From positions 1 through 25,517 of the forward strand of contig JBQTGV010000201.1 in the NCBI GenBank assembly GCA_052390515.1: a stretch of DNA of 25,517 bases, written 5' to 3'. This DNA comes from Candidatus Eiseniibacteriota bacterium (GTDB taxonomy: Bacteria > ARS69). The translations under genes and the position numbers were made by a program. The notes beneath the pieces are model-generated. The model was given only the letters and a program-made list of their open reading frames with translations. It had not been told where the DNA came from and did no database searches. Below are positions 1-25,371 of the stretch, one piece after another (position 1 is the first letter of the stretch; every line of letters begins with the position of its first letter).

Positions 1-1281
1 GCCGACTCCCGATCGCCCCATCAACTCCGGCAGGAAGAGGCTGAGCGAGGGACCGTAGGTGATGAGCAGGAGCGCCAGCGCGAGGATCGCCAGGAACGGC
101 AGGCAGGACCGGTACAGATCCCAGATCGATTTCTCGAACCGGAACGAGGATATGAACAGGTTGAGACCGAGCGGCGGAAGCGAGTACCCGATTTCCAGGT
201 TGGTCAGGAAGATGATCCCGAGGTGTGTCAGGTTCACTCCGTACCCCTCCGCGATCGGGACGATCAGCGGCAGCACCACGATGAGCGCCGAGAACACGTC
301 CAGCAGCGCACCGACGATCAGGAGGAAGATGTTCAGGGCGATCAGGAACGTCCACTTGGAGCTGAACGCGCCTTGCATCCACTCCAGGATCTGCATCGGC
401 ACGTCGGCATCGATGAGGTAGTTCGTGAGCCCGAAGGCGGCGGCGACGATCACCAGGATCCCGGCGACGAGCACCATGGACCCGCGGACGACGTGGGGCA
501 GGTCCCGGAGACGGAGGTCCCGGTAGACGACCATCTCCACGAAGAGGGCGTACAGCGCCGTCAGGGATCCGGCTTCCATCACCGTCACCCGGCCGGAGTA
601 GATGCCCCCCAGCACGACCAGGGGCAGTGGGACTTCCCAGGCGGCATGGCGAAGGGCGGTGCGCAGCTCCCCCCACCGGAACGGCGTGCGCCCCGCCGCC
701 GGCGCCAGCGGGCGCCGCGCCCCGTAGAGGGCGAGCAGCAAGATCAGGATCACCCCCGGGACGATCCCGGCGAGGAAGAGCGCGTCGATCGGTGTCCCGG
801 CGACGTACGCGTAGATGATGAGTGGCAGGCTCGGAGGGAACAGCAGCCCCAGCGACCCCGAGGTGGTGATGAGCCCCAGCGTGAACCGCTCCGGGTAGCC
901 GGAAGAGATGAGTGCCGGGTAGAGCAACCCCCCCACGGCAAGGATGGTCACGCCGCTCGCACCGGTGAACGCGGTGAACAGCGCGCAGGTGAGCAGCGCC
1001 ACCAGCGGCAGCCCGCCGGGGAGCCAACCCACCAGCGCGCGGGCCACGGCGAGCAGCCGCCGTGGAGCTCCGCTCTCCGCCAGGACCGCACCGGCGAACG
1101 TGAAGAGCGGCAGTGCCACCAGCAACGGCGACCCGGCGAGGCGCAGCATCTCGATCGCCACCGCGGAACCGGAGATCTCGATGGAGGCGAACAGCACGAG
1201 CGCCAGGAACGCGACGACCAGGAAGAGCGGCAGACCGAAGAGCGCGGCCAGGAGCCCGAGGACGACGAGGGGCGCGGTCAA
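1..1281 (-). CDS. dctM: TRAP transporter large permease (DctM); last few codons and stop lie beyond the window edge
   Basis: Not in the ORF track. TTG at 1281 overlaps the dctQ stop (TTGA). Translates MTAPLVVLGLLAALFGLPLFLV..., very hydrophobic, with DctM motifs FTAFTGASGVT, GSLGLLFPPSLPLI and EIGYSLPPLGLNLF, ending ...LLITYGPSLSLFLPELMGRSGVG at base 1. Confidence 0.92.
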   Translation of the reverse strand, partial: MTAPLVVLGLLAALFGLPLFLVVAFLALVLFASIEISGSAVAIEMLRLAGSPLLVALPLFTFAGAVLAESGAPRRLLAVARALVGWLPGGLPLVALLTCALFTAFTGASGVTILAVGGLLYPALISSGYPERFTLGLITTSGSLGLLFPPSLPLIIYAYVAGTPIDALFLAGIVPGVILILLLALYGARRPLAPAAGRTPFRWGELRTALRHAAWEVPLPLVVLGGIYSGRVTVMEAGSLTALYALFVEMVVYRDLRLRDLPHVVRGSMVLVAGILVIVAAAFGLTNYLIDADVPMQILEWMQGAFSSKWTFLIALNIFLLIVGALLDVFSALIVVLPLIVPIAEGYGVNLTHLGIIFLTNLEIGYSLPPLGLNLFISSFRFEKSIWDLYRSCLPFLAILALALLLITYGPSLSLFLPELMGRSGVG

Positions 1282-1949
1282 GGCTGAGTTCCCTGGTGTC
1301 CGGTCGGCGCGGGCAGCTCCAGCTCCACCTCCACCTCGGGCGCGCGCGGCGCCTCGCCCGCGATCTCCGCGAACAAGAGCCACGCGAAGCGGTAGGCCAG
1401 CACCAGGAAGGCGACGGGCAGCGCGGCGATGATCACCCACGCCGGCACGGAGAGGAACGCCACCTCGGGAAAGGCGACCTCGTCCGCGAGCAGGAGCAGG
1501 GAGGCGTGCGCGAGCATGAGGGCCACGATCCCGGCGAACGCGGCGACGGCCGCGCCGGCGATCCGCTGCGCCGTGCCTCGCAGCAGGCGGCCGAGCACGT
1601 TGATCTGGACGTGTCGCTTGCGCCCGGTGGCGGCGATCGCGCCGGTCAGCGCCAGGAGCAGCACGAGGTGCCGGAGCACGGGATCGATCCACAGCAGGCC
1701 GGAGTCGAGCAGATTGCGGAGCAGGATCTGCAGGCCGGACAGGAACACCATGGCGAGGAGGTTCGCGGCGAGCAGAGCGTCGATGAGCATCTCGAGCCGG
1801 TCACGGAGGAGAATGACCGGGGCCGAGCGGCGCACGGCGAAGAGGGCACCCGCCACCATGAGGCAGACCGCGCCGCAGACGGCCGCGAACGGTCCGAGCG
1901 GCGGGAGCCCTGCCAAGAAGCGCGCCAGCGTCTCGGCCAGGCCTGTCAC
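1278..1949 (-). CDS. dctQ: TRAP transporter small permease (DctQ)
   Basis: C-terminal part of ORF 1278..2933. GTG at 1949 overlaps the dctP stop. Contains LQILLRN, WIDPVLRHLVL and RHVQINVL, typical of DctQ, and lies between P and M. Confidence 0.85.
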   Translation of the reverse strand: MTGLAETLARFLAGLPPLGPFAAVCGAVCLMVAGALFAVRRSAPVILLRDRLEMLIDALLAANLLAMVFLSGLQILLRNLLDSGLLWIDPVLRHLVLLLALTGAIAATGRKRHVQINVLGRLLRGTAQRIAGAAVAAFAGIVALMLAHASLLLLADEVAFPEVAFLSVPAWVIIAALPVAFLVLAYRFAWLLFAEIAGEAPRAPEVEVELELPAPTGHQGTQP

Positions 1950-2992
1950 TATCGGCTCCCCGCCTCCCCGGCAGGCTCTGCGCGGCGGGCCGCCACCACG
2001 TGCTTCATCCGCGAGAGCAGTTCCGCGGAGTAGAGCTTGCCCACGTTCCGGTTCGCGGCCTTCTCGCCGATCTCGCGGAAGAGCACCAGCTCCGGCCCTG
2101 CGATCGGCACGATCTGGATCCCGGCGGCACGTATGTCGTCCAGCGCGCGGCGGTTCTCCTCCCGCGACGACTGCTTCAGCCGGGCGAAAACGTCCTTCGC
2201 GATCTCCCGGATCTTCGCCTGAGAGGCGGGAGTGATCCCGCTCCACGCCTTCTCGGTGACGATCACGGCGCCGATCGCGTGGGTGATGGGCAGCTCGCTC
2301 ATCGACTTCACCTGGGTGTGCCACTGCAGGACGACGGCGGCGTACGGCGAGCTGTACACGCCGTCGACGAGCCCGGTCTGCAGGCTCGTGTACACGTCGG
2401 TGATGGCCAGCGGAACCGGAGCCACGCCGGCCTCGGCGAAGAACGCTTCGGCGAGGGGATCCCCCTCCCACAGCCACATCTTCCTGGACCGCAGGTCGCC
2501 GAGGTTCCTCACCGGCGCGCGCGTGAACAGATGCACGAACCCGACTTCCGCCCACCCCAGGAGGACGTGCCCGCTCTCGCGCAGCGCGGCCTCCAGCTCC
2601 GTGCCGAGCTCGGCGTAGACCGCGTCGATCTCGGCCTCGCTCTGGAACGCGAACGGCACCTCCAGCACGCGCAGCGGCGGCGCCACGACGCCGAGCCCGT
2701 TGCCGGTGAACCCGCCGCCGTGCAGCTGGCCGCTGCGCATCTTCTTGAGGACGAGCCGCTCGTCGCCCTGCACGCCACCCGGGTAGAACTTGAAGCCCGC
2801 CTCCCCGGCGGTGGCCTCGCGCACGCGGGTGTCGAGCTCGTGCATGAGGGTCATCCAGGTGGAACCCTCCGGAGCGAGCGTGGCGATCTTGATCTGCACG
2901 CGCGCGGCCGCGGGGGCCGCGTGAGCGACGCACGGACTCAGCGCGAACAGCAAACCGGCGAACACGAGAAGTCGATTCACGGCGGGCCTCAC
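1949..2992 (-). CDS. dctP: TRAP substrate-binding protein DctP, TatP(T) type (start GTG 2992 or 2980)
   Basis: Signal peptide, then IKIATLAPEGSTW, YPGGVQGDE, VLLGWAEVG and VYTSLQTGLVDG motifs of DctP. Confidence 0.92.
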   Translation of the reverse strand: MRPAVNRLLVFAGLLFALSPCVAHAAPAAARVQIKIATLAPEGSTWMTLMHELDTRVREATAGEAGFKFYPGGVQGDERLVLKKMRSGQLHGGGFTGNGLGVVAPPLRVLEVPFAFQSEAEIDAVYAELGTELEAALRESGHVLLGWAEVGFVHLFTRAPVRNLGDLRSRKMWLWEGDPLAEAFFAEAGVAPVPLAITDVYTSLQTGLVDGVYSSPYAAVVLQWHTQVKSMSELPITHAIGAVIVTEKAWSGITPASQAKIREIAKDVFARLKQSSREENRRALDDIRAAGIQIVPIAGPELVLFREIGEKAANRNVGKLYSAELLSRMKHVVAARRAEPAGEAGSR

Positions 2993-3879
2993 TCGAAGAG
3001 TTCCTCGCTCCGCGCGAGCAAGGTCTCGGCCTTCACGCGGGCGATGCGGTTCAGCAGCTCGGCCTCGGGCAGGGCGCCCGGCTTCGCCGCGAGCACTTCA
3101 CGGAGGGATGACTCGAACGCGGCGGCGTCGAACGTCTGAACGCACCACGATTTTGCGAAGAACACGAGACCGAGCAGCAGGTTCCTTCCGGACACGGCGA
3201 AGGCTCGCTCGAACTCCTCGCGGGAGCGATCCGGGTTCCCTCCTAGCATGATGGGCCGGCTGGCGTGCATCGTGCCGATCAGGATCCGGGGCATGCCCCA
3301 GAACAAGCGCTCGTCGAGCTCCGCGACGCGCTCGGCGAGCGGCATCAGCCGGGCGACGTCGGCCACCGCCCCCGGATCGCCGAGGCTCAGCTGGATCCAC
3401 ATGCCCCAGTTCGCCGCGACCCACAGCAGGGACTCGGCGTCCTTCGGACGGACCTCCCGCAGCACCACGGCGAGCTCGTCGAAGGTCCCCTCGCGGATGG
3501 CGCGCTCGGCTTCCGGCCGGCCGAACGCACGCCACGCGACCTCCCGCCCCCGGTCGTACAGCGCCAGCGCACGTCCCGGGTCTTCGTCCTCGACGTACCC
3601 GAACGCGTACGCGAAGTACATCATGGAGGCCAGCACGGCGACGTCGCGCTGGCGGGGGTGAGTCTCGAGCATGCCTTCGAGCAGCAGGATGCTGGTCGGC
3701 AGGGCGTCCCCGACGAGCCGGGGGTCCTCGGAGCGGAGCGCGGCTTCGGTCGTGTTCTCGAGTACCGGCACCATGAGGTCGACGGTGAGGCGCGACGTGC
3801 TGCATCCTCCGAGAAGCACGAGGACGGGGACGGCGAAGGGGGCGAGGAGCGCGGTGGACGGAAGCTTCCCGAGGCTCAT
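2989..3879 (-). CDS. tatT: TRAP transporter TatT component (TPR-like lipoprotein)
   Basis: ATG 3879 after a GAGGGGGG SD; lipobox LGGC. Helical protein with ED-x-LVGDALP, YAFGYVED, LGGNPDRSREEFERA and a C-terminal LF-E, directly upstream of dctP. Confidence 0.85.
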   Translation of the reverse strand: MSLGKLPSTALLAPFAVPVLVLLGGCSTSRLTVDLMVPVLENTTEAALRSEDPRLVGDALPTSILLLEGMLETHPRQRDVAVLASMMYFAYAFGYVEDEDPGRALALYDRGREVAWRAFGRPEAERAIREGTFDELAVVLREVRPKDAESLLWVAANWGMWIQLSLGDPGAVADVARLMPLAERVAELDERLFWGMPRILIGTMHASRPIMLGGNPDRSREEFERAFAVSGRNLLLGLVFFAKSWCVQTFDAAAFESSLREVLAAKPGALPEAELLNRIARVKAETLLARSEELFE

Positions 3880-4039
3880 CGACCCCCCTCCCCCACGAAC
3901 GGCGCGCTCCGGGGGCGAAGGAACCATGGCAGCCGGGCACCGGCAAGCGGGTTTTTACCACTCGGACGAAACAACGGCGGCGCCTGCCGCGTCTCAGCCG
4001 TTGAAAGCTCTTCTTCCGGCGACTGGATCCGGGGGGCCG

Positions 4040-5977
4040 ATGCAGCGATTCACGATTCCGGCGGTGTTCTCGATCGTCCTGGCCGCGGCGCCGGTTGCGG
4101 CGCTCGAACATCCCACGTGGAAGGAGTTCTCCCGTGAGGAGCTCTTCTCCACGCACTTCCCCGAGGCGACGGGCGCCGACGCGGTGATCCTGTTCGACGC
4201 GTGCGAAGTGAAGGTGGACCCCAAGCTCCACCTCCGCATCGGACGGCACCGCCGGACGAAGATCTTCACGCCCGCCGGAGCCAGCCGGGGCGAAGTGCGC
4301 ATCCGCTTCGGGGACGACGACAAGATCCTGGACCTCGAGGGTCACACCGTGGTGCCGCCCGCGCGCTTCGTGAAGCTCGAGAAGAAGCACTCCCGCGAGG
4401 AAGCGCATCCGGACGGCGGTCGCGTGCTGATCGTCTCCTTCCCCGAGGTCGCGCCGGGAACGATCCTCGAGTACTCGTACACCCACTGGACGAAGCAGCT
4501 CGCGCGGATCGAGCCCTGGGAGTTCCAGAACGACGACTTCACGCGGGTGAGCACGCTCGATCTGCAGATTCCCCGCGGCATGGAGTACGAGTCGGAGTTC
4601 GGCTGGCTGGCGGGGCCGACGCCCGCGCCGGAGCGCAAGACGGTCATCGATGCAGACCACCCCGACCGCGAGCTCGAGCAGAGCCGGTGGACGTTCACCC
4701 AGATCCAGCCGTTCCGGCCCGAGCCGTGGCTCTCCAATACCGTGGACTACCGCACCACGCTGCACCTGCAGCTCGTGGCCAGCGACCAGGGCGGGAAGCG
4801 CGTCGAGATCGCGCCGTCGTGGGGCTCCCTGTCCGCTTCCGTAGCGGCCGGCTGGGCCGCGGCGCTCGCCGACGACGGCGGCGTCGCGAAGTGGGCGCAG
4901 ACGGCCGGAGGCGCGACGCCCGCCGAGCGCGCCGAGTCGCTCTTCCGCAAGGTCCGCGACGAGATCGCCGACTCGCCGGCGTCCTCGCCCTTCGCCCTGC
5001 CGCCGCTCCGGTCGGTGGTGGAGTCGCGGAAGGCGTCACCCTCGGCGAAGAACCTCCTGCTCGTGCACGTGCTGCGTGGAGCCGGCCTCGCCGCCGATCC
5101 GGTGCTGGTGCGGCCGCGCTCGCGGGGAGAGCTGCACGCGAAGTGGCGCATCCTCGATCAGCTGGAGTACGTCGTGGCCCGCGTGGATCTCGGCGGACGC
5201 ATCGTGTACGCCGACGCGCGCAGCAGCCGGTGCCCCTTCGGTATGTTGCCACCGGATCTGCTCGTCACCTCGGGCCTGCTCGTCGCCGCCAGCGGCGGCT
5301 CCCTCGTCGACCTCGGCATGGCCGCGCCGCCGTCCTCGGTCGAGGCGAAGACCGTGGCGCGGCTCGACTCCTCGGGCACGCTCTCCGGGTCGACGCAGTG
5401 GACCTTTGCCGGGTACGAAGCGCTGGAAGCGCGCCGTGAGATCCTCGGCGGGAGCGCCGCCGACTACGTAACACGGCTCCTGCGGCGGAACCTCGGCGAG
5501 GCCGGGGTCGACTCCGTGCAGGTCGAGGGGCTGGACGCTGAGGGAGCACCGCTCGTTCTTCACGCCGCGTTCCAGGCCGTCGACTGGGCGAGCAGCGGAA
5601 TGGACCGGATCGAGTGCCGCGTGCCGTTCGTGCTGGCGCGCCAGGAACCTATCCTCGCCGAAGGGACGCGCGCCTTCCCGATCGAGCTCCCCTTCCCGAC
5701 GAGCCACGACGAGACCGTGCGTCTCGATCTGCCGGAGACCTTCCGGGTCGCGCAGGCCCCGCCCGGAGGCCGGGCCAGCAACGAGGATCTCTCCTACTCG
5801 CTGAGCGTAGAAGCGTCCGAGCAGTCCGTCTCCGCGCGGCGCCGCTTCGTGGTCCGCGAGCCTGAGATCCAGCCGGCGCGGTCCGCCGGCGTGCGCGAGA
5901 TCGACGAGAAGGCTCTCTCCTGCGATTCGGCAAAGCTCGTGGGGAGCCGGCGCGCGTTCGGCAGCGCCACGCGCTAG
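4040..5977 (+). CDS. Secreted DUF3857 / transglutaminase-like domain protein
   Basis: ATG 4040 gives a signal peptide (MQRFTIPAVFSIVLAAAPVAA). ADAVILFD, FPEVAPGTILEYSY and WEFQ fit DUF3857; KNLLLVHVLRGAGL...PVLV fits the TGase-like core; RAFPIELPFP fits the C-terminal domain. Confidence 0.8.
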   Translation: MQRFTIPAVFSIVLAAAPVAALEHPTWKEFSREELFSTHFPEATGADAVILFDACEVKVDPKLHLRIGRHRRTKIFTPAGASRGEVRIRFGDDDKILDLEGHTVVPPARFVKLEKKHSREEAHPDGGRVLIVSFPEVAPGTILEYSYTHWTKQLARIEPWEFQNDDFTRVSTLDLQIPRGMEYESEFGWLAGPTPAPERKTVIDADHPDRELEQSRWTFTQIQPFRPEPWLSNTVDYRTTLHLQLVASDQGGKRVEIAPSWGSLSASVAAGWAAALADDGGVAKWAQTAGGATPAERAESLFRKVRDEIADSPASSPFALPPLRSVVESRKASPSAKNLLLVHVLRGAGLAADPVLVRPRSRGELHAKWRILDQLEYVVARVDLGGRIVYADARSSRCPFGMLPPDLLVTSGLLVAASGGSLVDLGMAAPPSSVEAKTVARLDSSGTLSGSTQWTFAGYEALEARREILGGSAADYVTRLLRRNLGEAGVDSVQVEGLDAEGAPLVLHAAFQAVDWASSGMDRIECRVPFVLARQEPILAEGTRAFPIELPFPTSHDETVRLDLPETFRVAQAPPGGRASNEDLSYSLSVEASEQSVSARRRFVVREPEIQPARSAGVREIDEKALSCDSAKLVGSRRAFGSATR

Positions 5978-6184: not shown

Positions 6185-7108
6185 TCACCCCGGAACGAAC
6201 ACCTCGATCGCCGCGGGCACGGAGCGGATGACGAGCGGGCTCTCTCCGGCCGTGCACACCTCGCCGTCCACCTCGTAGCGGATCGGCGCGTCGAAGCCCA
6301 CGCGGAACGCGTCCCCCGTCAGGATCTCCACCTCGCGCTGCCCTTCGTGCCGGCCCCGCGCCACGAGATCGAAGAGCCGCGCGCGCCGCAGCGGTCCGGC
6401 GTCGGCGATGGAGACGAGATCGAGCCGCCCGTCGGCGAGCTCCGCGCGCGGAGCGATCCGGAAGGACCCGCCGAAGATCCCGCCGTTGGCGACGACCAGC
6501 ATCAGGTGTGCGGCTCGGCGCGCCGGCCCGGAGCCCTCGGCGATCTCCAGCATGGTCCCGGGGAAGCGGAACAGCTGCCGAAGCGCGCAGAAACGGTAGA
6601 GGAGGTCGCCGCGCAGGAGCGGCGTGCGGGCGGCGTCGTCGATCACGGCGATGTCGAAGCCGAAGCCGACGATGTTCAGGAAGTACCGGTCCGCGACCAA
6701 GCCGGCGTCGATCCGACGCGTTCGGCCGGCCGCGATCGCCCGCACGACTTCCGCCGACCGCTCGAAGGTGACGCCCAGGCTCTTGCCGAAGTCGTTGCCG
6801 GTCCCGGACGCGAGCAGACCGAGCGCCACGTCCCGCCTGGGGCCCCGGAGAATCCGGTCCGCCGCCCGGCTCCACGTGCCGTCGCCGCCCACCGCGACGA
6901 TCGCGTCGTGCCCGTCGCGGAGCGCGCCGTCGATCAGCGCGTCCTCCTCACCGGGGCGGCTGGTCACCGCCTCACGATAGGCCGGGAACTCCCGCCGGAG
7001 CAGCTCCCGGAAGTGCGGGATGCGGTCCGCCCGCCGCCCACGCCCGGCGGCGGGATTGACCAGAACGAACACGGACCTGGGCGGTGTCACTCCTGACGCC
7101 CCGCGCAC
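6185..7108 (-). CDS. YegS/DgkB/BmrU-family diacylglycerol (lipid) kinase (start GTG 7108 or 7090)
   Basis: Intact motifs NPAAG, GGDGT, GTGNDF, FLNIVGFGFD, ANGGIFGG and DGE. Confidence 0.92.
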   Translation of the reverse strand: MRGASGVTPPRSVFVLVNPAAGRGRRADRIPHFRELLRREFPAYREAVTSRPGEEDALIDGALRDGHDAIVAVGGDGTWSRAADRILRGPRRDVALGLLASGTGNDFGKSLGVTFERSAEVVRAIAAGRTRRIDAGLVADRYFLNIVGFGFDIAVIDDAARTPLLRGDLLYRFCALRQLFRFPGTMLEIAEGSGPARRAAHLMLVVANGGIFGGSFRIAPRAELADGRLDLVSIADAGPLRRARLFDLVARGRHEGQREVEILTGDAFRVGFDAPIRYEVDGEVCTAGESPLVIRSVPAAIEVFVPG

Positions 7109-7115
7109 CGCCGCG

Positions 7116-7787
7116 TCACGCCGTGGCCAGCGTCTCGAGTTCCTCGAACACCTGCACGCCGTCCCTCATCCACAGCTCCCGGAACGGACGATCCGCGATC
7201 TCGTCGGCGTCGAGACCGCTCCCCATGGGGTGGTCGTGGAGGACCAGGGAACCCTGCTCCTCCTCGTGCTCGCTGAATCGGCCGCGCATGTGGATGTCGA
7301 CTTTGAGGCCGGCGTCGCCGTCCACCATGAAGGACTGGTAGAGGTGATCGACCTCGCTCCAGCGATGCTCCCGGACGGCGAGGTCCAGCACGCGGCTCCG
7401 CCCCTCCCGCACCCGGCACTCGATCCCGTCCGGCGCCTGCTCGAAGTCGATCTGCACGTCCGCCATGTGGTGCGGCAGATGCCACCTCTCGATGGCATGC
7501 TCGCGCGACTCCCGGGTGCTCGTGCCCAGCACGAAGGGAAAGAAGGCGGACCGCGGGAAGGCCTCCCCCCGCTTCGCCAGCGGGGGAACGATGACCGCGA
7601 GAACGATCTCCTGGTACGCTCCGACCATGCTGTCGGTGAAGTCGAACGCGGTCACCGCCAGGACGCCGGAGCCGTGATGGACCTCCAGTGGTTGCAAGTG
7701 GGCAGGGAGAAGCGCGCGCGCCGTGCCCGTGGGCATCTCGAAGAACGCGCTCACCGCGTGCCGGAATCGGTAATGCGTGAGTGGCAT
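7116..7787 (-). CDS. Acetoacetate decarboxylase-fold family protein
   Basis: ARALLPAHLQP, FDFTDSMVGAYQEIVLAV and AIERWHLP match the ADC superfamily pattern. Confidence 0.75.
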   Translation of the reverse strand: MPLTHYRFRHAVSAFFEMPTGTARALLPAHLQPLEVHHGSGVLAVTAFDFTDSMVGAYQEIVLAVIVPPLAKRGEAFPRSAFFPFVLGTSTRESREHAIERWHLPHHMADVQIDFEQAPDGIECRVREGRSRVLDLAVREHRWSEVDHLYQSFMVDGDAGLKVDIHMRGRFSEHEEEQGSLVLHDHPMGSGLDADEIADRPFRELWMRDGVQVFEELETLATA

Positions 7788-7816
7788 GGGCCTCCGCCTC
7801 GCGTGAAGTGGATCGG

Positions 7817-8569
7817 ATGCTGAGGGGTGCCGCGACGCTCCTCGTCGCCGGCCTCTGGTTCCTCGGCGCCGACGTGATCGAGCGGTTCCTCGTGGCTCCC
7901 TTCGTCAGGCTCCGTCCCGCGTCGCGGTGGAAGGTGCTCCACCGCTGGGCGGGGTTCGTCGCCGGCGGAACGCTGGGGATCCTCCGGCGGCTCGGCGGGG
8001 CCCGCTTCGATCTCCCCGCGCGGATCCCCGCCCGCTCCGGCGTCCTCGTCCTGATGAACCACCAATCCTTAATGGACATTCCCGTAGCGTTCAAGTGCCT
8101 GGAAGGCGACACCCCCCTCCTGGTGACGAGGCGCCGCTACGCCCGAGGCATCCCCCTGGTGTCCCACATGCTCCGCCTCTACGAGCATCCCCTGGTGGAT
8201 CCGGGCCGGACGACCCGGGAGGACCTCCAGCACCTCGGCAGGGCGGCGAGGGAGAGCCCCGCCCCGATCGTCGTCTTTCCCGAGGGGCATCGCACCCGCG
8301 ACGGGGAGATCCGCCCCTTCAAGAAGGCCGGGGTCGGCGCTATCCTCACCGCCCGCCGCTGGTCGGTCTACCTCCTCGTGGTGGACGGACTGTGGCGCTG
8401 CGCGAGGATCTCCGAGTTCGTGCGGACGATCAGCTCGGTGCGGGCGCGTGCCGAGTGGATCGGTCCGGTCGAGTTTCACGGGCCGGAGAACGACCCCGAT
8501 GCGTTCCTCGACGAGATGAGGACCCGGATGCGAAACCGGCTGGCCGAGATCCGTGACCGTCCTCGCTGA
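7817..8569 (+). CDS. plsC: 1-acyl-sn-glycerol-3-phosphate acyltransferase (PlsC / LPLAT family)
   Basis: NHQSLMD (NHx4D) and VFPEGHRTRDG motifs, plus an N-terminal hydrophobic helix. ATG 7817 is the most plausible start. Confidence 0.88.
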   Translation: MLRGAATLLVAGLWFLGADVIERFLVAPFVRLRPASRWKVLHRWAGFVAGGTLGILRRLGGARFDLPARIPARSGVLVLMNHQSLMDIPVAFKCLEGDTPLLVTRRRYARGIPLVSHMLRLYEHPLVDPGRTTREDLQHLGRAARESPAPIVVFPEGHRTRDGEIRPFKKAGVGAILTARRWSVYLLVVDGLWRCARISEFVRTISSVRARAEWIGPVEFHGPENDPDAFLDEMRTRMRNRLAEIRDRPR

Positions 8570-9467
8570 GCCGCCGGCCGCGGCGCGAGCACTCCAGCGG
8601 AGCGCCGGCCAGGAGCTCGTCGCTCTGCTCGCGTTCGGCTCGCGCGTGACCGGTGCCGGACCGGACGCGCGCAGCGCGTGGGATCTCTTCGCCGTCGTCC
8701 GCGACTACGCGGCGTTCTACGGGCGATGCCGCGACGATGCCGCCTGGCGCCGCTCCGCCCGCGGCCTCTCCCGCTGGAACCGCATCCTCCCGCCGAACGT
8801 GCTCCATCTCGCCGAGCCCGGCGGCCCGGGCGCGAAGCTCTTCGTGATCTCGGAGCACCATCTCGAGCGGGCCCTGCGGCCGGCCCACGCGGATCACTTC
8901 TGCCGGGCTCGCCTCATGCAACGGGTCGAGGTCCACGCCGACTCGTCCGTCGCGCGCGCCCGCATGGAGACGCTGCTCGCCGGAACACGCCGCACGATGG
9001 TCTCCTGGCTTCGGCCTTTCCTGCGCGGTCCGTTCGACGCGGGCCGCTTCTGCCGGGAGCTGTTGGCCGTCTCCTACCGGAGCGAGATCCGGCCCGAGCC
9101 CGCCGGACGCGCCGTCGAGGTCTTCCTCGCGCAGAGCGACTACCTGCTCTCCGAATACGGCGCCATCCTCGAGGCTGCCGCGGAGCGCGGCGAGCTCGTA
9201 CGCGAGGGTTCCTCGTTCCGCTACGCACGGCCGGCCGGCCTCGGCGAGCGCCTCGCGGCGCGGTGGCGCCTGCATCGGTCCAAGCTGCGCTCGACGGTGC
9301 GCTGGCCCAAGTACGTGATGACCTTCGACGGCTGGCAGGACTACATCGCCGCGAAAGTGGAGCGCCGCGTGGGCCTTCGCGTCGTGCTCACCGAGCGCGA
9401 GCGCCGCCACCCGTTCCTCTTCCTGTGGCCGAAGCTGTTCCGTGTCCTCCGCGCGAGAGGCCGATGA
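8553..9467 (+). CDS. Tam41/Mmp37-like nucleotidyltransferase, putative phosphatidate cytidylyltransferase (CDP-DAG synthase)
   Basis: NTase signature AFGS...WDLFAVV; KLFVIS...L...RARLMQRV; LLAVSYRSEIR; C-terminal DYIAAKVER. These align by eye with conserved Tam41 blocks. Lies between plsC and a CDP-alcohol transferase. Confidence 0.65.
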   Translation: MTVLAEPPAAARALQRSAGQELVALLAFGSRVTGAGPDARSAWDLFAVVRDYAAFYGRCRDDAAWRRSARGLSRWNRILPPNVLHLAEPGGPGAKLFVISEHHLERALRPAHADHFCRARLMQRVEVHADSSVARARMETLLAGTRRTMVSWLRPFLRGPFDAGRFCRELLAVSYRSEIRPEPAGRAVEVFLAQSDYLLSEYGAILEAAAERGELVREGSSFRYARPAGLGERLAARWRLHRSKLRSTVRWPKYVMTFDGWQDYIAAKVERRVGLRVVLTERERRHPFLFLWPKLFRVLRARGR

Positions 9468-10195
9468 GGAGCGAGATCACCTTGCTGGTCGTGCTGCTGG
9501 GCTGCGCGGTCCTCTCCATGGTCGCGTGGTCGGCGGCGCGCCGCGGCGAGGACGCAACGTCCCGTCACACCGCGCAGCGCGGGAGCTTCGCTCTCGGCAC
9601 GGCCGTACGGGAGTGGTTCTACTGGACGCTGGGCCCGGTCGAGCGGCTGATCATCGCGCTGCGCATCGCTCCGGAGACGTTCAACGCGCTCGGCGTGCTC
9701 CTCGCGCTCGGTTCGCTCGTGGCTTACGCCACGGGCCTGCTCCCGCTCGGTGGTTGGCTGATGCTGGCGAGCGGCCTGGCCGACGTGCTCGACGGAGTGG
9801 CCGCGCGCGCGCGCCAGGTGGTGTCCCGCTACGGCGCCTTCCTCGACTCCACGCTGGACCGCTTCGCGGAGACGGCGGTCTTCGTCGGTCTCGCCTGGTT
9901 CTACCGTACGCCGGTCGCGGTGACCATCGTGGTCGTCGCGCTCTCCGGTTCCCTCCTGGTGAGCTACACGCGCGCCCGCGGCGAGGGCCTCGGCGTCGAG
10001 TGCAAGAAGGGCGTGATGCAGCGCGCGGAGAGGATGCTGCTCCTCGGCTTCGCTTCGCTGCTCGATCCCACGATCTCCTCGGCCGTGCGGCGCGAGCCGG
10101 GTTCCGTGCTGCTTGCCGCGCTGGCGCTCGTCGCGGTCGGCTCCACCGGCACCGCGATCTGGCGCACGATCTGGATCGCGCGCGCATTGCGGTGA
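9464..10195 (+). CDS. CDP-alcohol phosphatidyltransferase (PgsA / phosphatidylinositol-phosphate synthase-like)
   Basis: ATGA overlap at 9464. Full signature DVLDGVAAR...YGAFLDSTLDR, plus SYTRARGEGLG and RAER motifs. Confidence 0.92.
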   Translation: MRSEITLLVVLLGCAVLSMVAWSAARRGEDATSRHTAQRGSFALGTAVREWFYWTLGPVERLIIALRIAPETFNALGVLLALGSLVAYATGLLPLGGWLMLASGLADVLDGVAARARQVVSRYGAFLDSTLDRFAETAVFVGLAWFYRTPVAVTIVVVALSGSLLVSYTRARGEGLGVECKKGVMQRAERMLLLGFASLLDPTISSAVRREPGSVLLAALALVAVGSTGTAIWRTIWIARALR

Positions 10196-11463
10196 GGTCC
10201 GCCGCCGCGCTCGGCGTGCTGCTGTGGCTGCCGATCGCGCTCGCCGTGGACGGCGGCCTGGCGCTCGCCGCGGGGTGGTCGCCGCGCGGGGCCGGGCGCG
10301 CTCTCGTTCCGGTCTGCCTCGGCCTCCTCGCCGGGGGCGCGGCGCTCCTCGCCCTGCCGAGGACGCGGAGTTGGCTGGCGCGGCGGCTCGGCGCGATCGC
10401 ACTGGCCGGCGCCGGCCTGCTCCTCGCCCTGGCGCTCGGCGAGCTCGTCGTGCGCCCCTTCCGCCCGATCGTGGTCGACGAGCTCACCCACCTTCGCCCT
10501 CCCGGCCTCGAGCAGGTGTACCACCCCGATCCGGCCGTGATGCCCGGCGTTCGCGGCGACTCGAGATACGAGATCAACTCCCTCGGCGTCCGGGGCGACG
10601 ATCTGCCTCCCGGCGCCGGCACCTACCGCGTCCTGTGCGTCGGCGGGAGCAGCACGGAGTGCCTCTACCTCGACCAGGACGAGGCCTGGCCCACGCGGTT
10701 GCAGGCTTCGCTCCGCACCGCCGGACGGGACGTCTGGGTCGGCAACGCCGGCATCTCCGGCTACGCGACGCCGTACCACATCCGCTTCGTGCGCGCGTCC
10801 TCGGTCGCCGCGGGAATGGACTGCTTCGTCTTCCTGGTCGCAGTGAACGACCTCCTGTGGTGGCTCGGAGAGCGGAGCTTCGCCTCCGTGCCGCCCGACC
10901 CCGAGCCCGTGCGGCGGCCCTTCGCGCTCTCGACCGGAGTCGGCCGACTCGTGGCCGCCGCCGCGCAGCGCCTCGAGCGCCCCCAGGGTCCCGGGGTCGT
11001 GGAGGACGAGGCCGGGGAGAACTATGTCGAGCGGCGCCGGGAGCGGGCCGACGCCGCCCCGTTCGAGGAGCTCGAGCCGCCGCTCGAGTCGTACGTCGCA
11101 TACGCGGCCCGCCTCGATCACCTCGTCGTGTCGTGCCGGGAGCGCGGGCAGAGGGCGATCCTCGTCACGCACCCGGTGCTCTGGCGCGAGGGCATGCCGC
11201 CCGAGGAGGAGGCTCTCCTGTGGCTCGGGCGACGCAAAGGGGGCGCGTACGTCTCCGCCGCGAGCCTGCGCCGGATCATCGACCGGTACAACGAGCTGGC
11301 GCGCGGCGTCGCGGCGAAGCGCGGCGCGGAGATCGTCGATCTCTCCGATCTGTCGGGCGACCCGCGCTGGTTCTACGACGACTGCCACTTCAACGAGGCC
11401 GGCGCCGCGGAGGTCGCGCGGCGGCTGGCCGAGCACTTCCTTCGAGCAGCGCTTCCGGATTGA
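10192..11463 (+). CDS. Membrane-anchored SGNH/GDSL hydrolase family protein
   Basis: GTGA overlap at 10192. N-terminal TM helices, then block I CVGGSSTE, block II NAGISG, block III AVND and block V DDCH. Confidence 0.85.
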   Translation: MRSAAALGVLLWLPIALAVDGGLALAAGWSPRGAGRALVPVCLGLLAGGAALLALPRTRSWLARRLGAIALAGAGLLLALALGELVVRPFRPIVVDELTHLRPPGLEQVYHPDPAVMPGVRGDSRYEINSLGVRGDDLPPGAGTYRVLCVGGSSTECLYLDQDEAWPTRLQASLRTAGRDVWVGNAGISGYATPYHIRFVRASSVAAGMDCFVFLVAVNDLLWWLGERSFASVPPDPEPVRRPFALSTGVGRLVAAAAQRLERPQGPGVVEDEAGENYVERRRERADAAPFEELEPPLESYVAYAARLDHLVVSCRERGQRAILVTHPVLWREGMPPEEEALLWLGRRKGGAYVSAASLRRIIDRYNELARGVAAKRGAEIVDLSDLSGDPRWFYDDCHFNEAGAAEVARRLAEHFLRAALPD

Positions 11464-12092: not shown

Positions 12093-13073
12093 TCACCCGC
12101 AGACGCGGTTCCGTCCCGAGTCTTTCGCCTGGTACACCGCCTCGTCGGCATGCCGGATGATCGAGTCGGGGTCGGTCCCATCGCGGGGGAAGCTGGCCAC
12201 CCCCAGCGAGAGCGTGACGTTGCCGAGCGGCTGGTTCTCCCGGCCGTGGAACGAATGGCTCTCGACGATCCGGCGGATGTGCTCGGCCAGCTCCCTCGCC
12301 TCGTCTTTGGAAGCTTGCGGAACCAGGGCGACGAGCTCTTCGCCGCCGTAGCGCGCCACGATTCCGGGCTGAGGCACTTCCCGCCGCGTGAGCTCGGCCA
12401 GCGTCTTGAGCACGTCGTCTCCGGCCAGGTGTCCGTTCGTGTCGTTGAAGCGCTTGAAGTGATCCACGTCCATGAAGATCACCGAGACCTCGGTGTCGTT
12501 TCGGCGCGCCTCGTTCAGCTCGCGGATCAGCGCCTCGCGGAAGAGGCGATGATTGAAGAGCCCGGTGAGCCCGTCCTTGCTGGCGTGCTCCTTCAGGTTG
12601 TCGGCCAGCTTGAGCAACGCGGTGTTCGCGCGGTTGAGGTCCGCCGTCTGGACCTTGAGCTCCTCGGTGAAGCGGCGGCTCCGGCGGACCTGCGCGGCCT
12701 TCTCCGCCGCGCGACCCACCACCGAGGTGATGACCTCGATCTCGACGAACGGCTTGATCATGAAGTCGTAGGCCCCCGCTCGAAGGGCCCGCGTCGCCGA
12801 CTCGAGCGAGGCGTGGCTCGTCATGATCAGCACCACGGTGTCGGTGTCGATGGCCTTCACTTCCTCGAGCAGCGCGAGGCCGGACATTCCACGCATGACG
12901 ATGTCGGTGACGACGATCGGGAACGGCTTCCGGCGAAAGGCTTCGAGCGCCTCTTCGGCGCTGGCCACGGCGGTCACGGGATAGCCGTCCTCTTCCAGCA
13001 CGTCGACCAGCACGGTGCGCAGGGTGGCCTCGTCCTCGGCAACGAGCACGCGGGGTTTCTCTTTCGAGGTCAA
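12093..13073 (-). CDS. Diguanylate cyclase response regulator (REC-coiled coil-GGDEF); start uncertain (TTG 13073/13082, ORF extends to 13178)
   Basis: REC domain: VLVAEDE, TDIVM, MTS, IKPF. GGDEF domain: DGLTGLFN, DVDHFKRFNDTNGHLAGD, RYGGEEL, ADEAVYQAKDSGRN. Confidence 0.92.
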   Translation of the reverse strand: MTSKEKPRVLVAEDEATLRTVLVDVLEEDGYPVTAVASAEEALEAFRRKPFPIVVTDIVMRGMSGLALLEEVKAIDTDTVVLIMTSHASLESATRALRAGAYDFMIKPFVEIEVITSVVGRAAEKAAQVRRSRRFTEELKVQTADLNRANTALLKLADNLKEHASKDGLTGLFNHRLFREALIRELNEARRNDTEVSVIFMDVDHFKRFNDTNGHLAGDDVLKTLAELTRREVPQPGIVARYGGEELVALVPQASKDEARELAEHIRRIVESHSFHGRENQPLGNVTLSLGVASFPRDGTDPDSIIRHADEAVYQAKDSGRNRVCG

Positions 13074-13171
13074 GTCGGGCAAGTCCTGGCAGGGGAATCG
13101 AGCCCCGTGGTCGGGGCCTTCGGTGTCTTTTCGGCCCTCCCCGGGGACTCTCTTGATCGGAAACCGTCGCC

Positions 13172-13200
13172 TTGACACTAGACATACGTCTAGCTATCGT
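13172..13200 (+). promoter_or_regulatory. sigma70-type promoter of imuA-imuB-dnaE2, probably leaderless
   Basis: TTGACA (13172-13177), 17-bp spacer, TATCGT (13195-13200). The ATG is 5 nt downstream and has no SD. Confidence 0.75.
13178..13193. promoter_or_regulatory. Palindromic operator CTAGAC-ATAC-GTCTAG, candidate LexA (SOS) box
   Basis: Perfect 6-4-6 palindrome filling the -35/-10 spacer of an operon that is normally LexA-repressed. Confidence 0.7.
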
Positions 13201-13205
13201 CGGGT

Positions 13206-13817
13206 ATGGCCCGTCTCGTCCAGGCTGCTCGCGGTCTTTCCGTTCCCTTTCTCGCCCGGCCGCTGTCCGACCTGCTCCCGGGGCGGCTCGTCGAGGTGTC
13301 CGGGGGACCGGGATCGGCCCGGCTCACGTTCGCCGCCTCGCTCGTTCGACGGGCGCAGATCGAGGGAGAGACCACCGCCTGGATCCAGCGAGAGGACGGG
13401 GTCCTGTTCCCTCCGGATCTCGAGGAAGCGGGCGTAGACCTCGGCGCTCTCGTCGTGGTGCGCATCCCGCTCTCCTTCGCGGACGGGATGTTCCGCGCCG
13501 CGGAGATCCTGCTCGGTTCGGGAGCGTTCGGCCTCGTGATCCTGGACATCCGCGACACCCGGCCCCGAATCCCCGCCTCCGTGCAGGGGCGGTTGCTCTC
13601 CGCGGCGCGTGAGCATCGCAGCCGCGTGCTCTTCCTGACTTCGAACCCCGCCGCGTCCGAATCGCTGGGGTCCCTCGTGGGGCTCCGGCTCGAGCCGCGG
13701 CGGATCCGGGTGGGACCCGGCACGTTCGTGCTGGAGACTCGCGTCTTGAAGAACAAGCAGGGCCTCTGCCTCGACGAGCCGGTAGAGCACCGCCGCGGCC
13801 CCCGGGGACTGGAGTGA
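13206..13817 (+). CDS. imuA: ImuA, RecA-like mutasome protein
   Basis: GRLVEVSGGPGSARLT (degenerate Walker A), FPPDLEEAGVDL and LLGSGAFGLVILD; first gene of the imuB-dnaE2 cassette. Confidence 0.85.
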   Translation: MARLVQAARGLSVPFLARPLSDLLPGRLVEVSGGPGSARLTFAASLVRRAQIEGETTAWIQREDGVLFPPDLEEAGVDLGALVVVRIPLSFADGMFRAAEILLGSGAFGLVILDIRDTRPRIPASVQGRLLSAAREHRSRVLFLTSNPAASESLGSLVGLRLEPRRIRVGPGTFVLETRVLKNKQGLCLDEPVEHRRGPRGLE

Positions 13818-13820
13818 TCC

Positions 13821-15313
13821 GTGAACGACCTCTTCGAGCCGGACATCGCGTGCGTCGCCGTTCCCGCGTTTCCCTTGCAGGTCGTCCTGCGCGCGCATCC
13901 GGAATGGAGGGACGACGCCCTCGTGATCGTCGAGGACGATCGCCCGCTCGCGCGCATTCTCTGGGCGAACCGTTCCGCGCGGCGGCACCGGATCGTCCCC
14001 GGACAGAAGTTCTCCCAGGCCAGGTCCCTCGTGGCCAAGTTGCGCGCCGTGCCCACGTCCGCCGTCGACTCGCCCGCGGTGACCGGCGAGATCTTCGCGC
14101 GGCTCCTCTCCTTCTCCCCCCGCGTCGAGCCCGCCGAGGATCCCTCCGGCGTCTTCTGGATGGATCCACGCGGCCTCGGGCGGCTCTACGACAGCCACGC
14201 CTCGTGGGCCTCGCGGATCGAACGCGCGGTCGCCGAGCGCAACCTCGTGGCCTCGGTCGTCGTGGGATGGAACCGGGCGAACGTCCTCGCCGTGTCGCTC
14301 TCGGTGCGCGGCGTGCGCGTGTTCCAGGACCCGGCGGAAGAGACGCGGGAAGCGGACCGCGTCGGTCTCTCCACCGTCGATCTTCCGCCGGAGCTTCGCC
14401 GGGGCCTCCACCGGCTGGGCCTCGCCACGCTCGGTGAGCTCCGGCGGCTTCCTGCCTCCGGCCTCGTTGCGAGGTTCGGGGCGGAAGCCGGAGCGCTTCA
14501 GAATTTCCTGTGCGGAAGGACCTGGACGCCGCTCCGGCCCGCGTTCCCCGAGCGCTCGTTCCGCGTGGACGTTCCCGTCGATCCGCCCGACGACGACCGC
14601 AACCGTCTCCTGTTCGCGGTCAAGGGGGCGCTGCACGAGCTCACCCGGTTGCTTCGCGCCGAGTCGAAGGGGGTGGTCGCGGTCGAGCTCTCGCTCGCGC
14701 TCGACCACGCGGGCGAGCATCACGAGCGGATCGAGACGGCGGCTCCCACGCTCGACGTGGTTCGCCTCGTCGACCTCGTGCGGCTCCGGCTCGGGGGGAT
14801 CGAGCTGGCCGCGCCCGTCGAGCAGGTGAGCGTGGAGGTCCGCGCGAGGGAAGTTTCCGCGGGGCAGCTCTCCCTTCTGGAGACACCTCCCCCCCGCGAC
14901 CGCGCCCGCGCCGCGGAGGCCCTGTCCCGGGTGAGGGCCGCGTTCGGAGGCACGTCGGTGGTGAGAGCGCGGCTCGTCGACGCGTACCTCCCCGAATCCC
15001 GCGTGCGGTGGGAAACACTCACCGAGGTTCCGGAGCCGGTCCCGCCGGAGCTTCCCGGTCTCCTGCCCCTGATGCGCACGCTGCTCCCGGTCCCCCGCGC
15101 GCTCCCCGACGTTCCGCGGCACGAACGGGAGAGCTGGCTCGGGCGTCACGGTGCGGTCGAGACGCTGCACGGACCCGACCGGGTGAGCGGCGGATGGTGG
15201 AATCAGGCGCACGACCGCGACTACTTCTTCGCCGAGACGAGGACGGGCGAGATCCTGTGGCTCTTTCTCGAGCGAGCGGAACGCGCCTGGTACCTGCACG
15301 GATTCGTGGACTG

Positions 15314-15314
<1 letters not shown>
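13821..15314 (+). CDS. imuB: ImuB, catalytically inactive Y-family polymerase
   Basis: Y-family fold lacking catalytic acids (ACVAVPAFPLQ, FSPRVE); clamp motif QLSLL; C-terminal GPDRVSGGWW...RDYF...WYLHGFVD. Confidence 0.9.
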
Positions 15315-18403
<3,089 letters not shown>

Positions 18404-19412: not shown

Positions 19413-20150
19413 TCAGCGGCTGCGGAGCCGGCCGGTCTTCTTGAGGAAGCGAGCCACGAAGTAGAACGCGAACACGGCCCCCAGGGCCACGATCCAGCCC
19501 GACGGGTTCTCCCGGATCGAATCGCCGCCCCGGTGCGCCGGGTGCTCGAGGGCGAGGAGCAGGACCAGCGCGAGAGACCAGGTGAAGATCTGGCCGTACT
19601 CCTTGGCGAGCACCCGCCACCAGTCGAACCGGGCCCCGCGCAGCGTTTCGCCCAGTCCTCGAAGAGAGATCCGGAACCGATCGACTCGACGGCAGTAATC
19701 GTCGTAGCGGACACCGAACTTCTCGGCCAGGAAGCGCTCCTCCGCGGCAACGATCGCCAGGTAGGTCAGGCCGACCGCCGGCACACCGACCAGCCACCCC
19801 ACCGGCGAATTGAGCACGGTGAAGAGGCCCAGGAAAACGAGGAAATTGCCGACGTAGAGCGGGTTGCGGCAGTGCGCGAACAGACCGTGCTCGACGAGCT
19901 CGTCGGCGTGAACGCGCCCCTTGCAACCGGCCCGGGGCACGTAGGCGATGCCGATGACCGCGGCACGCAGGAGCTGCCCGCAGATCACGAGAGCGACGCC
20001 GAGGACGTCCATGGCGCGGTCCGCGGCGAGGCTGCCGAAGGGAAGCCGCGGGTGGTCGGCCAGCAGCGTCGCCGCGAAAGCCGCCGGAAACAGCAGGTCT
20101 CGCCAGCGGAAGAGCCAGTTCCCCAGACCGACGAGGGCGCCCGGAAGCAT
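19413..20150 (-). CDS. Isoprenylcysteine carboxyl methyltransferase (ICMT/PEMT) family membrane methyltransferase
   Basis: ATG 20150. Motifs LVEHGLFAHCRNPLYVGN and AEERFLAEKFGVRYDDYCRRVDRF, with several TM helices. Confidence 0.85.
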   Translation of the reverse strand: MLPGALVGLGNWLFRWRDLLFPAAFAATLLADHPRLPFGSLAADRAMDVLGVALVICGQLLRAAVIGIAYVPRAGCKGRVHADELVEHGLFAHCRNPLYVGNFLVFLGLFTVLNSPVGWLVGVPAVGLTYLAIVAAEERFLAEKFGVRYDDYCRRVDRFRISLRGLGETLRGARFDWWRVLAKEYGQIFTWSLALVLLLALEHPAHRGGDSIRENPSGWIVALGAVFAFYFVARFLKKTGRLRSR

Positions 20151-20173
20151 GGGGACCGGCCTCGAGGCGCCGG

Positions 20174-21256
20174 TCACGCCGGGGCGCTCGTCGCCTGCTC
20201 CCGCGCCGCCGGGAGCGGCAGCGCGCGGACGAGATCCAGGAACTCGCCCGCGTCGATCTGCTGGATCGCATCGGAGAGGGCACGCGCGGGATCGGGATGC
20301 ACCTCGAACATCAGGCCGTCCGCTCCGGCGGCGAGCGCCGCGCGCGCGCACGGCAGGAGGATGTCGGTTCGCCCGACGGCGTGGCTCACGTCCACGATCA
20401 CCGGCAGCTCCAGCTCCGCGCGCAGAAGCGGCACCGCGGCGACATCCAGCGTGTTCCGCGTCCGATAGTCGAACGTGCGGATTCCCCGCTCGCAGAGCAC
20501 GACGGACTCGTTGCCGCCCGCACGAAGGTAGCCCACCGCGGAAGCCATCTCGTCCAGGCTGGCCATGAACGCACGCTTGAGCAGCACGGGAATACGCATG
20601 CGCCCGAGCGCCTTGAGCAGCTCCGTGTTGTACATGCTGCGCGCACCGACCTGGACCATGTCCACCTGCGCCGCCACGGCTTCGAGCGTGGTCACGTCCA
20701 GCACCTCGGTGACGACCGGCAGGCCGAACTTCCTTCCCGCAGCGCAGAGCAGGCGGACGCCTTCCTCACGGAGCCCCTGGAACGAATCCGGATCGGTGCG
20801 CGGCTTGTACGCCCCGCCCCGCAGGATCGCGGGGACACCGAGCTCCGGCGCCAGCGCGGCCACGGCCTCGATCTGCTCGGCGCTCTCCACCGCACACGGC
20901 CCGAAGAAGAGCACCTGCTCGGCGCCACCCACCGTCACCGGCCCGACGCGGACCGGCGTGACCGCGGCGTCCCGGATGACCCCGCGCCCGCTCCGCTCCC
21001 GCTGCTGCAGCTGGAGCGAGGCGCGGAAGATCGCGGAGAAGACCGCACGGATCTCGGCGACGTGGAAGGGACCGCGGGATTCCCGAAGCACGTCGCGGAG
21101 CATCGCCTCCTCGCGGGTCGGATCGTACGCCGCGACGCCGTGCTCCTCCTTGTACCGCGCGATGAGGCGGACGATCTCGGCCCGTTCCTGGACCAGATCG
21201 AGGATCTCGCGGTTCAGGCGATCGACGTCTCCACGGAGGCGGGACAGTCGGTCCAG
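20174..21256 (-). CDS. Bifunctional chorismate mutase (AroQ) / DAHP synthase class I-beta, apparent CTG start
   Basis: The frame stays open 51 codons upstream of ATG 21103 and reads LDRLSRLRGDVDRLNREILDLVQERAEIVRLIARYKEEHGVAAYDPTREEAM (AroQ). DAHPS motifs: GPCAVES, RGGAYKPRT, QVGAR, CERGIRTF, DVSH, EVHPDP. Confidence 0.88.
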   Translation of the reverse strand: MDRLSRLRGDVDRLNREILDLVQERAEIVRLIARYKEEHGVAAYDPTREEAMLRDVLRESRGPFHVAEIRAVFSAIFRASLQLQQRERSGRGVIRDAAVTPVRVGPVTVGGAEQVLFFGPCAVESAEQIEAVAALAPELGVPAILRGGAYKPRTDPDSFQGLREEGVRLLCAAGRKFGLPVVTEVLDVTTLEAVAAQVDMVQVGARSMYNTELLKALGRMRIPVLLKRAFMASLDEMASAVGYLRAGGNESVVLCERGIRTFDYRTRNTLDVAAVPLLRAELELPVIVDVSHAVGRTDILLPCARAALAAGADGLMFEVHPDPARALSDAIQQIDAGEFLDLVRALPLPAAREQATSAPA

Positions 21257-25187: not shown

Positions 25188-25371
25188 GAACTCCCTCCCG
25201 CGCGGAGCGGGAGAATACCCGCCCTCGCGCGATTCCAGGAGCGGGAAAGCGCGCGCGTCGCCGACCCGCGAGGCCTCGAGGCTTCCGGCGGGACTCTCCG
25301 CCGGAGCGGCCGTTGACGGAGATGCCGGGTTGTGGTTTCTTCCACGGCTGCCTGCGGAGGGCTCCCGCTCG

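Follow-up and report, generated by a model that had tools for sequence, protein, structure and literature searches.

In a stretch of 25,517 nucleotides from a Candidatus Eiseniibacteriota bacterium (contig JBQTGV010000201.1, in full the window of this report), we studied a divergent cluster of six genes at 6185..11463, which an earlier note made from the sequence alone had described as a self-contained second route to glycerophospholipids. Five of the six genes are conserved in relatives. Together with a serine palmitoyltransferase (Spt)-like gene found on a different contig of the source genome (C219), these five probably make a phosphosphingolipid via CDP-ceramide, with an inositol-phosphate head group. 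The parts of this proposal differ in strength. A sphingoid-type phospholipid pathway is likely; given such a pathway, a CDP-ceramide intermediate is highly likely, an inositol head group is a good prospect, and the PlsC-like protein is somewhat favoured as the enzyme that forms the amide. We advance more tentatively the proposal in its most specific form, a ceramide pathway independent of bCerS, the only ceramide synthase so far known from bacteria, and put together from glycerophospholipid-type parts: a kinase, an N-acylating PlsC-fold enzyme, a Tam41-fold enzyme making CDP-ceramide, and a finishing enzyme like the phosphatidylinositol-phosphate (PIP) synthases. Three points would be new: a candidate to take the place of bCerS, the step through CDP-ceramide that we predict, and a protein of the acetoacetate decarboxylase (ADC) fold linked to Spt. 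Sphingolipids are membrane fats better known from animals and fungi, and the cluster points to a possible new route to them in uncultured bacteria.

The conservation of the cluster was established by a genome scan in which the best 80 of 179 relatives were kept as loci. All 80 loci are in metagenome-assembled genomes, and they span Gemmatimonadota, Krumholzibacteriota/Latescibacterota, Eisenbacteria and Acidobacteriota. The genes cluster far beyond chance across these loci: the CDP-alcohol transferase gene is present in 78/80, the adc gene in 69/80, the plsC-like gene in 69/80 and the diacylglycerol (DAG) kinase-family gene in 65/80, and many of the absences coincide with contig ends. The earlier note had suggested looking for the recurrence of these four families, and they do recur. 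When all open reading frames (ORFs) in the loci are clustered, an alpha-oxoamine synthase (spt-like) gene appears in 67/80, immediately ahead of adc. In relatives of the same family as the source (G070, G067, G064 and G060), spt is located between adc and plsC. A medium-chain dehydrogenase/reductase (MDR) gene, not present in the window, is found in 36/80 loci, and in Vicinamibacteria the complete set is codirectional with a short-chain dehydrogenase/reductase (SDR) gene at the front. Altogether, a reductase (MDR, SDR or CerR-like) adjoins the cluster in 42 of the 58 loci with enough flanking sequence. The sixth gene of the window cluster, an SGNH hydrolase with a 49%-identical paralogue on contig C104 of the same genome, occurs in 0/80 loci and has no match in any other locus fetched. 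We reject it as a pathway member, and with it the tailoring step that the earlier note had assigned to it; we regard it as a co-transcribed passenger. No cultured carrier of the cluster was found, either among the 80 loci or among the named matches of a further search, which are likewise metagenome-assembled genomes.

The source genome does carry the spt-like gene, outside the window. On contig C219 the orthologue (63-65% identical) overlaps with another ADC-fold gene, which shares 58% identity with the copy in the window (both at L081:376-2477). In 13 genomes the locus has no spt; 10 of these do have the orthologue at another site (60-70% identity), in every case with a copy of adc downstream. 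In the window's family, 7 of 11 genomes have the Tam41-like gene, and they are the same 7 that have the spt orthologue (two of them appear to be the L001 and L002 genomes). Amongst 151 Gemmatimonadota genomes, a set that includes two genomes of the 80 loci and in which related genomes are not independent, the Tam41-like gene is found in 13, the spt orthologue in 14, and both in 12. The relative G070 has an intact cluster plus a second spt copy 81% like that of C219, which suggests that the spt-adc pair was duplicated and that the in-cluster spt was then lost.

Compared with PDB sequences, the C219 protein matches Spt best (3A2B, 289 bits), ahead of Kbl (226) and BioF (190). In a tree of 18 rows, which has few Spt references and only one labelled spt by NCBI, it groups with Spt and apart from Kbl, BioF and HemA with support 95/98. 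It has the motifs DEAHS and GTFSKS, which we take to be Spt motifs. Roles as BioF or Kbl were rejected on the PDB scores, the tree, the failure to find bioB and bioD in the source genome, and the presence there of a separate gene for Kbl. Most likely, the C219 gene encodes a serine-palmitoyltransferase-like enzyme, with a predicted specificity for serine and a long-chain acyl donor. Its ADC-fold companion follows closely, with 0-48 bp between match ends in 71/71 loci holding both genes near full length. The model of the ADC-fold protein (predicted local distance difference test, pLDDT, 95.5) superposes on 3BH2 with Z 22.1 and a root-mean-square deviation (rmsd) of 2.7 over 202 residues, and its profile has no PDB sequence match. 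In 73 sequences there are invariant Glu, His and Arg residues, and Lys reaches at most 36/73 rows at any column; a His occupies what is presumably the position of the Schiff-base lysine of ADC. Our guess is that this protein is a partner of the synthase, binding or decarboxylating its product.

The protein encoded at 8553-9467 has itself no Pfam or NCBIfam match, including to Tam41_Mmp37 (PF09139), a model matched by 8 of its 47 aligned homologues with E-values up to 1 (best 3.3e-7). A PDB search with the single protein gives no match, and one with the profile reaches Tam41 at E 0.16 at best. The assignment comes from a structure model built from the 47 homologues (pLDDT 90). The top five Foldseek matches are all Tam41 (7ECD, E 8.8e-8), and in the VIA comparison Tam41 aligns with Z 21.0 and rmsd 3.2 over 242 residues, while the next family has Z 9.0. 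According to the model, the protein has the Tam41 fold, with a nucleotidyltransferase domain and a winged-helix domain, in agreement with the identity given in the earlier note. Where Tam41 has its GS, single Asp, Lys, Arg and SY-x-E-x-R motifs, the aligned columns of the family show no or almost no variation. The Tam41-fold gene stands directly ahead of the CDP-alcohol transferase in 78/80 loci, an arrangement from which we predict CDP-ceramide as the intermediate. Natural PlsC-Tam41 fusions occur in P0055, P0058, P0060 and P0061. Other fusions of the Tam41-like domain are with cytochrome P450 (P0065, whose N-terminal 400 residues have no family assignment, and P0069), an NTP transferase (P0129), an exo/endo/phosphatase domain (P0193) and a CDP-alcohol transferase (P0093).

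A Tam41-type gene is also found in the ceramide-phosphoglycerate (CPG) cluster of Caulobacter crescentus, where cpgABC and spt are CC_1159-CC_1162 (PMC9393093, PMC11324152). There, cpgC mutants retain ceramide phosphate and lose CPG (PMC9393093), homologues of CC_1161 (CpgC) carry the Tam41 InterPro domain (S1 Text, PMC11324152), and the mechanism by which CpgC converts ceramide-1-phosphate is termed "yet unidentified" in papers of 2025 and 2026. A PF09139 search has no match in the source genome or in the Caulobacter control, and so it cannot show or exclude CpgC. A profile search with the Tam41-like family retrieves 1337 representatives, including a proteobacterial group that we traced through annotated plasmids to a locus in Roseomonas whose genes, cpgD through acp, are ordered as in Caulobacter. 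In hhalign, the family aligns to the Roseomonas hypothetical gene between the kinase and spt with 99.6% probability and E 7e-25. By this profile comparison, made through the Roseomonas positional orthologue rather than the Caulobacter sequence itself, the window protein is a homologue of the protein encoded in the cpgC position of the Caulobacter-type sphingolipid cluster. Caulobacter-type sphingolipid gene sets are also found on IncP plasmids of Pseudomonas (L088, NZ_CP073662.1) and Diaphorobacter (L089, NZ_CP065408.1); the latter is conjugative, and its sphingolipid set adjoins arsenic and mercury resistance genes.

The acyltransferase of the cluster is a divergent member of its family. It scores 46 bits on TIGR00530 against a cut-off of 103, while a paralogue on contig C155 scores 84. 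Its family keeps NHxxxxD in 67/68 and EG-R in 68/68 sequences. In bacteria, the amide is expected from bCerS, which together with CerR was reportedly defined by Stankeviciute in 2022. We surveyed bCerS by profile in 50 cluster genomes (those of 49 of the 80 loci, plus the source genome, G000). It is found in 13/50 and not found in 37/50; the source genome, 95% complete, is one of those where it is not found. Eleven clusters are without an intact plsC-like gene (L037, which keeps a fragment, is counted, and the truncated L042 is excluded), and in the genomes concerned we detected no close orthologue at any other site. bCerS is present in 8/11 plsC-less genomes against 9/44 plsC-bearing ones (Fisher p 0.002, which overstates the case since related genomes are not independent, and the genomes are incomplete). 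In a quick tree there are five separate plsC losses, four of them in bCerS-positive lineages, and in the loss lineages most bCerS genes adjoin CerR-like, spt or ceramide-kinase-like genes. Because the losses fall mostly where bCerS is present, the PlsC-like protein may be the one that forms the amide. Two particular cases were observed. One is L122, where a bCerS-like gene is followed by a 34% homologue of the cluster MDR dehydrogenase, in the place where others have a CerR-like gene. The other is a clade (L029, L034, L036 and L052) that has lost the plsC-like gene, has no bCerS match in 3/4 members, and has a long Tam41-like branch (1.48); it is possible that this clade makes a changed product.

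The kinase has a conserved GGDGT motif and its best PDB match is DgkB (E 3e-20); we propose that it acts as a sphingoid-base or ceramide kinase. For the CDP-alcohol transferase, the best NCBIfam models are the archaetidylinositol-phosphate and PIP synthases, both below cut-off (137 vs 180 and 112 vs 170), and the best PDB matches are PIP synthases. The CDP-alcohol transferase signature is present. The equivalents of the inositol-phosphate pocket of M. tuberculosis PgsA1 are R94, S132 and R155 in 77/77 sequences and R195 in 76/77, residues that bind the acceptor phosphate and may not be inositol-specific. Inositol phosphate is our proposed acceptor. The inositol-phosphate synthase, MIPS, is present in the source genome and in 45/50 cluster genomes, a co-occurrence that we dropped as specific evidence after a phylum control found MIPS in 142/151 Gemmatimonadota genomes; by that count, inositol lipids may be general in the phylum. 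In L030, L032, L035, L053 and L067, a GT4 glycosyltransferase adjoins the cluster, which we take to be PimA-like and which could glycosylate an inositol head group.

The steps below are inferred from what was observed: the folds and families of the proteins, their conserved catalytic motifs, and the linkage of the genes. Serine and an acyl donor would be joined by the Spt-like enzyme, probably with the ADC-fold protein assisting, into a 3-keto sphingoid base. A dehydrogenase (in relatives the MDR, SDR or CerR-like gene) would reduce the ketone, and the kinase would phosphorylate C1. The PlsC-like enzyme would then add the second acyl chain to give ceramide-1-phosphate; the likeliest target is the amine of sphinganine-1-phosphate, a compound that resembles lysophosphatidic acid (lyso-PA). 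Kinase and acyltransferase may act in the reverse order. The Tam41-fold enzyme would use CTP to make CDP-ceramide, and the PIP-synthase-like enzyme would transfer it to inositol phosphate, with a phosphatase encoded elsewhere releasing inositol phosphoceramide. If correct, the pathway would add to the known kinds of ceramide synthase and to the known routes to inositol sphingolipids, and it would explain how Caulobacter CpgC works. Bacterial sphingolipid makers are predicted from spt, bCerS and cerR, and a Black Sea survey, which reports numerous spt-like genes where both bCerS and cerR are missing, suggests non-homologous replacements for these two (PMC11334938). The cluster supplies candidates for both: in place of bCerS a PlsC-fold acyltransferase, and in place of CerR the MDR and SDR enzymes. 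Lineages of Gemmatimonadota, Krumholzibacteriota, Eisenbacteria and Vicinamibacteria would then also be possible sources of inositol ceramides in the environment.

Besides the sparse Spt tree and the relatedness of the genomes, several points weigh against the sphingolipid pathway. Folds do not fix the substrate, because a bacterial (Firmicutes) Tam41 makes CDP-DAG (PMC11646218) and CpgB also phosphorylates DAG in vitro. Caulobacter without the CDP-alcohol transferase CpgA keeps CPG (PMC9393093), so that a CDP-ceramide step there needs another transferase. In the window, the kinase is closer to DgkB and has no tblastn similarity to the Roseomonas kinase in the CpgB position, nor is the CDP-alcohol transferase orthologous to CpgA. 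The wide presence of MIPS makes the substrate available, with no specific link to the cluster. No reductase is visible at 16/58 loci with enough flanking sequence; in the source genome the MDR orthologue was not found, and the closest matches there to the relatives' MDR, SDR and CerR-like neighbours share 28-38% identity and are not linked to the cluster. On the nearest NCBIfam Spt model, the cut-off of which is 640 bits, the Spt-like proteins reach 364-379 (C219, 364, and below every NCBIfam Spt cut-off), and their scores on BioF and Kbl models are similar. They have GSPILSG where reference Spt proteins have GSRxxNG, so serine is not proven as the substrate. As for the amide, we know of no PlsC-fold enzyme that forms one; three of the 11 plsC-less genomes (L029, L034 and L036) are also without a bCerS match, and PlsC-like and bCerS coexist in the 9/44 genomes above.

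These last points fit a variant within the same class of explanation, in which the sphingolipid pathway is the same and the PlsC-like enzyme adds an ester-linked chain (3-OH or hydroxy acyl chain), OlsA-style as in ornithine lipid, with the amide coming from an unlinked enzyme or being absent. The PlsC family are known as O-acyltransferases and the gene can be dispensed with in 11 clusters, which both count for the variant, and the PlsC-like protein weakly matches an OlsA model. We consider the variant unlikely, though the best of the alternatives: the plsC losses are concentrated in bCerS-positive genomes, the 80 loci show no further recurrent acyltransferase, and the fusions tie the PlsC-like domain directly to the Tam41-like step. 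Less probable still is an oxoamine synthase that works on a different amino acid or acyl donor and whose product is rearranged or decarboxylated by the ADC-fold protein; the cluster would then make an amino-alcohol phospholipid not yet described and distinct from the classical sphingolipids. The long branch and altered GSR/N motif of the synthase would agree with this, as would its constant pairing with the ADC-fold protein and a reductase family that differs from CerR in most loci. Its closest solved structure and tree neighbours, however, are Spt, and the kinase, Tam41 and CDP-alcohol transferase would need a primary alcohol, which serine supplies.

The improbable remainder is the view of the earlier note, that lyso-PA or DAG is converted to phosphatidic acid, to CDP-DAG and on to a specialised phospholipid (here this would be phosphatidylinositol-like) with Tam41 standing in for CdsA, which follows the textbook role of each family, a kinase closest to DgkB, the CDP-DAG made by Firmicutes Tam41 and a window without spt, but leaves unexplained the core membership of spt-like genes (needless for such a route) and adc genes, their genome-wide co-occurrence and the CpgC precedent (PMC9393093, PMC11324152). 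Nor does Tam41 replace CdsA, because the source genome keeps a canonical cdsA, adjoining uppS and frr, together with a separate, better-scoring plsC and three other CDP-alcohol transferases; a second PIP-synthase-like gene is also present elsewhere in it. With spt on C219, the cluster is not self-contained either. Two elements of that view appear to be right and carry over to the sphingolipid pathway that we prefer: the lipid intermediate is activated with CDP, and the route is devoted to a specialised lipid.

All six ORFs of the cluster are present and have a coding-type GC content at third codon positions (0.89-0.92), and their junctions are as the earlier note had given them. The plsC stop at 8569 lies beyond the GTG start of the tam41-like gene, a 17-bp overlap; an ATGA junction (9464-9467) joins the tam41-like and CDP-alcohol transferase genes, and a GTGA junction (10192-10195) the latter and the SGNH gene. 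The two divergent ATGs are 29 bp apart. Coordinates are collected in the table.

Features of the divergent cluster, in window coordinates
Feature	Position	Strand	Remarks
DAGK/YegS/sphingosine-kinase-family lipid kinase	6185..7108	-	Start may be 7090; Pfam DAGK_cat 5.6e-23 and YegS_C 1.4e-26
ADC-fold protein	7116..7787	-	Pfam ADC 29.1 bits, slightly below the 29.8 cut-off
Divergent gap, 29 bp	7788..7816	.	Position occupied by the spt-like gene in most relatives
Divergent PlsC-fold acyltransferase	7817..8569	+	PF01553 2.8e-15; candidate N-acyltransferase
Tam41-fold cytidylyltransferase	8553..9467	+	Fold match; proposed CDP-ceramide synthase
PIP-synthase-like CDP-alcohol phosphotransferase	9464..10195	+	Pfam CDP-OH_P_transf; proposed head-group transferase
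Membrane-anchored SGNH/GDSL hydrolase	10192..11463	+	Lipase_GDSL_2 7.7e-16; passenger

Elsewhere in the window there are TRAP transporter genes, including TAtT and DctP components, at 1278-3927 (-). From the translations, we take 13206-18403 (+) to be an imuA/imuB/dnaE2-like mutagenesis cassette. The regions 12093-13178 (-), 3671-5977 (+), 19413-21103 (-) and 22488-25466 (-) hold a response regulator-GGDEF protein and a DUF3857 protein, identified by Pfam, and what we take from the translations to be a methyltransferase-like membrane protein, a DAHP-synthase-like protein and a P-type ATPase.

Amongst known systems, the Caulobacter cpg cluster is like this one in that spt keeps company with genes for a DAGK-family kinase, a Tam41-domain protein and a CDP-alcohol transferase. 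The two differ in that bCerS, AcpR, AasR, CpgD and LptFG paralogues are not recurrent in our loci, which instead have PlsC-like, ADC-fold and MDR/SDR genes and a PIP-synthase-like transferase, and in that the kinase and transferase are not orthologues of CpgB and CpgA. With the Roseomonas bCerS, CpgA, CpgB and CpgD proteins as queries, tblastn at E 1e-3 has no match in the source genome (95% complete). It is thus already known that a bacterial sphingolipid cluster can carry a Tam41-type gene. In literature searches largely without subscription journals or bioRxiv supplements, word searches returned nothing on 'CDP-ceramide', and neither this gene set nor a PlsC-type ceramide synthase was found described. 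The claim that the gene combination is undescribed stands to that extent for the full set, and does not hold for the neighbourhood of Tam41-domain, kinase, transferase and spt genes described in Caulobacter. The Tam41 CDP-DAG synthases (S. pombe 6IG2/6IG4; Firmicutes 7ECD) share the whole two-domain fold, with Z 21 and 16, but at 12-14% identity; the window protein is below Pfam detection, and its context points to a sphingoid substrate. The ADC-fold protein resembles the acetoacetate decarboxylase-like superfamily (ADC 3BH2, MppR, Sbi00515, Swit_4259) with Z 19-22, and differs from it in having no conserved lysine and 10-18% identity. Finally, Bacteroides thetaiotaomicron is described as forming inositol sphingolipids (BT_1522-BT_1526) by way of PI-DAG, made first, from which an AUR1-like enzyme moves the head group (PMC9246714). 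Here the ceramide side would be CDP-activated instead, and there is no AUR1-like family among the annotated recurring neighbours. In both systems, a PIP-synthase-type transferase and MIPS would supply the inositol head group, and the proposed product class is the same.

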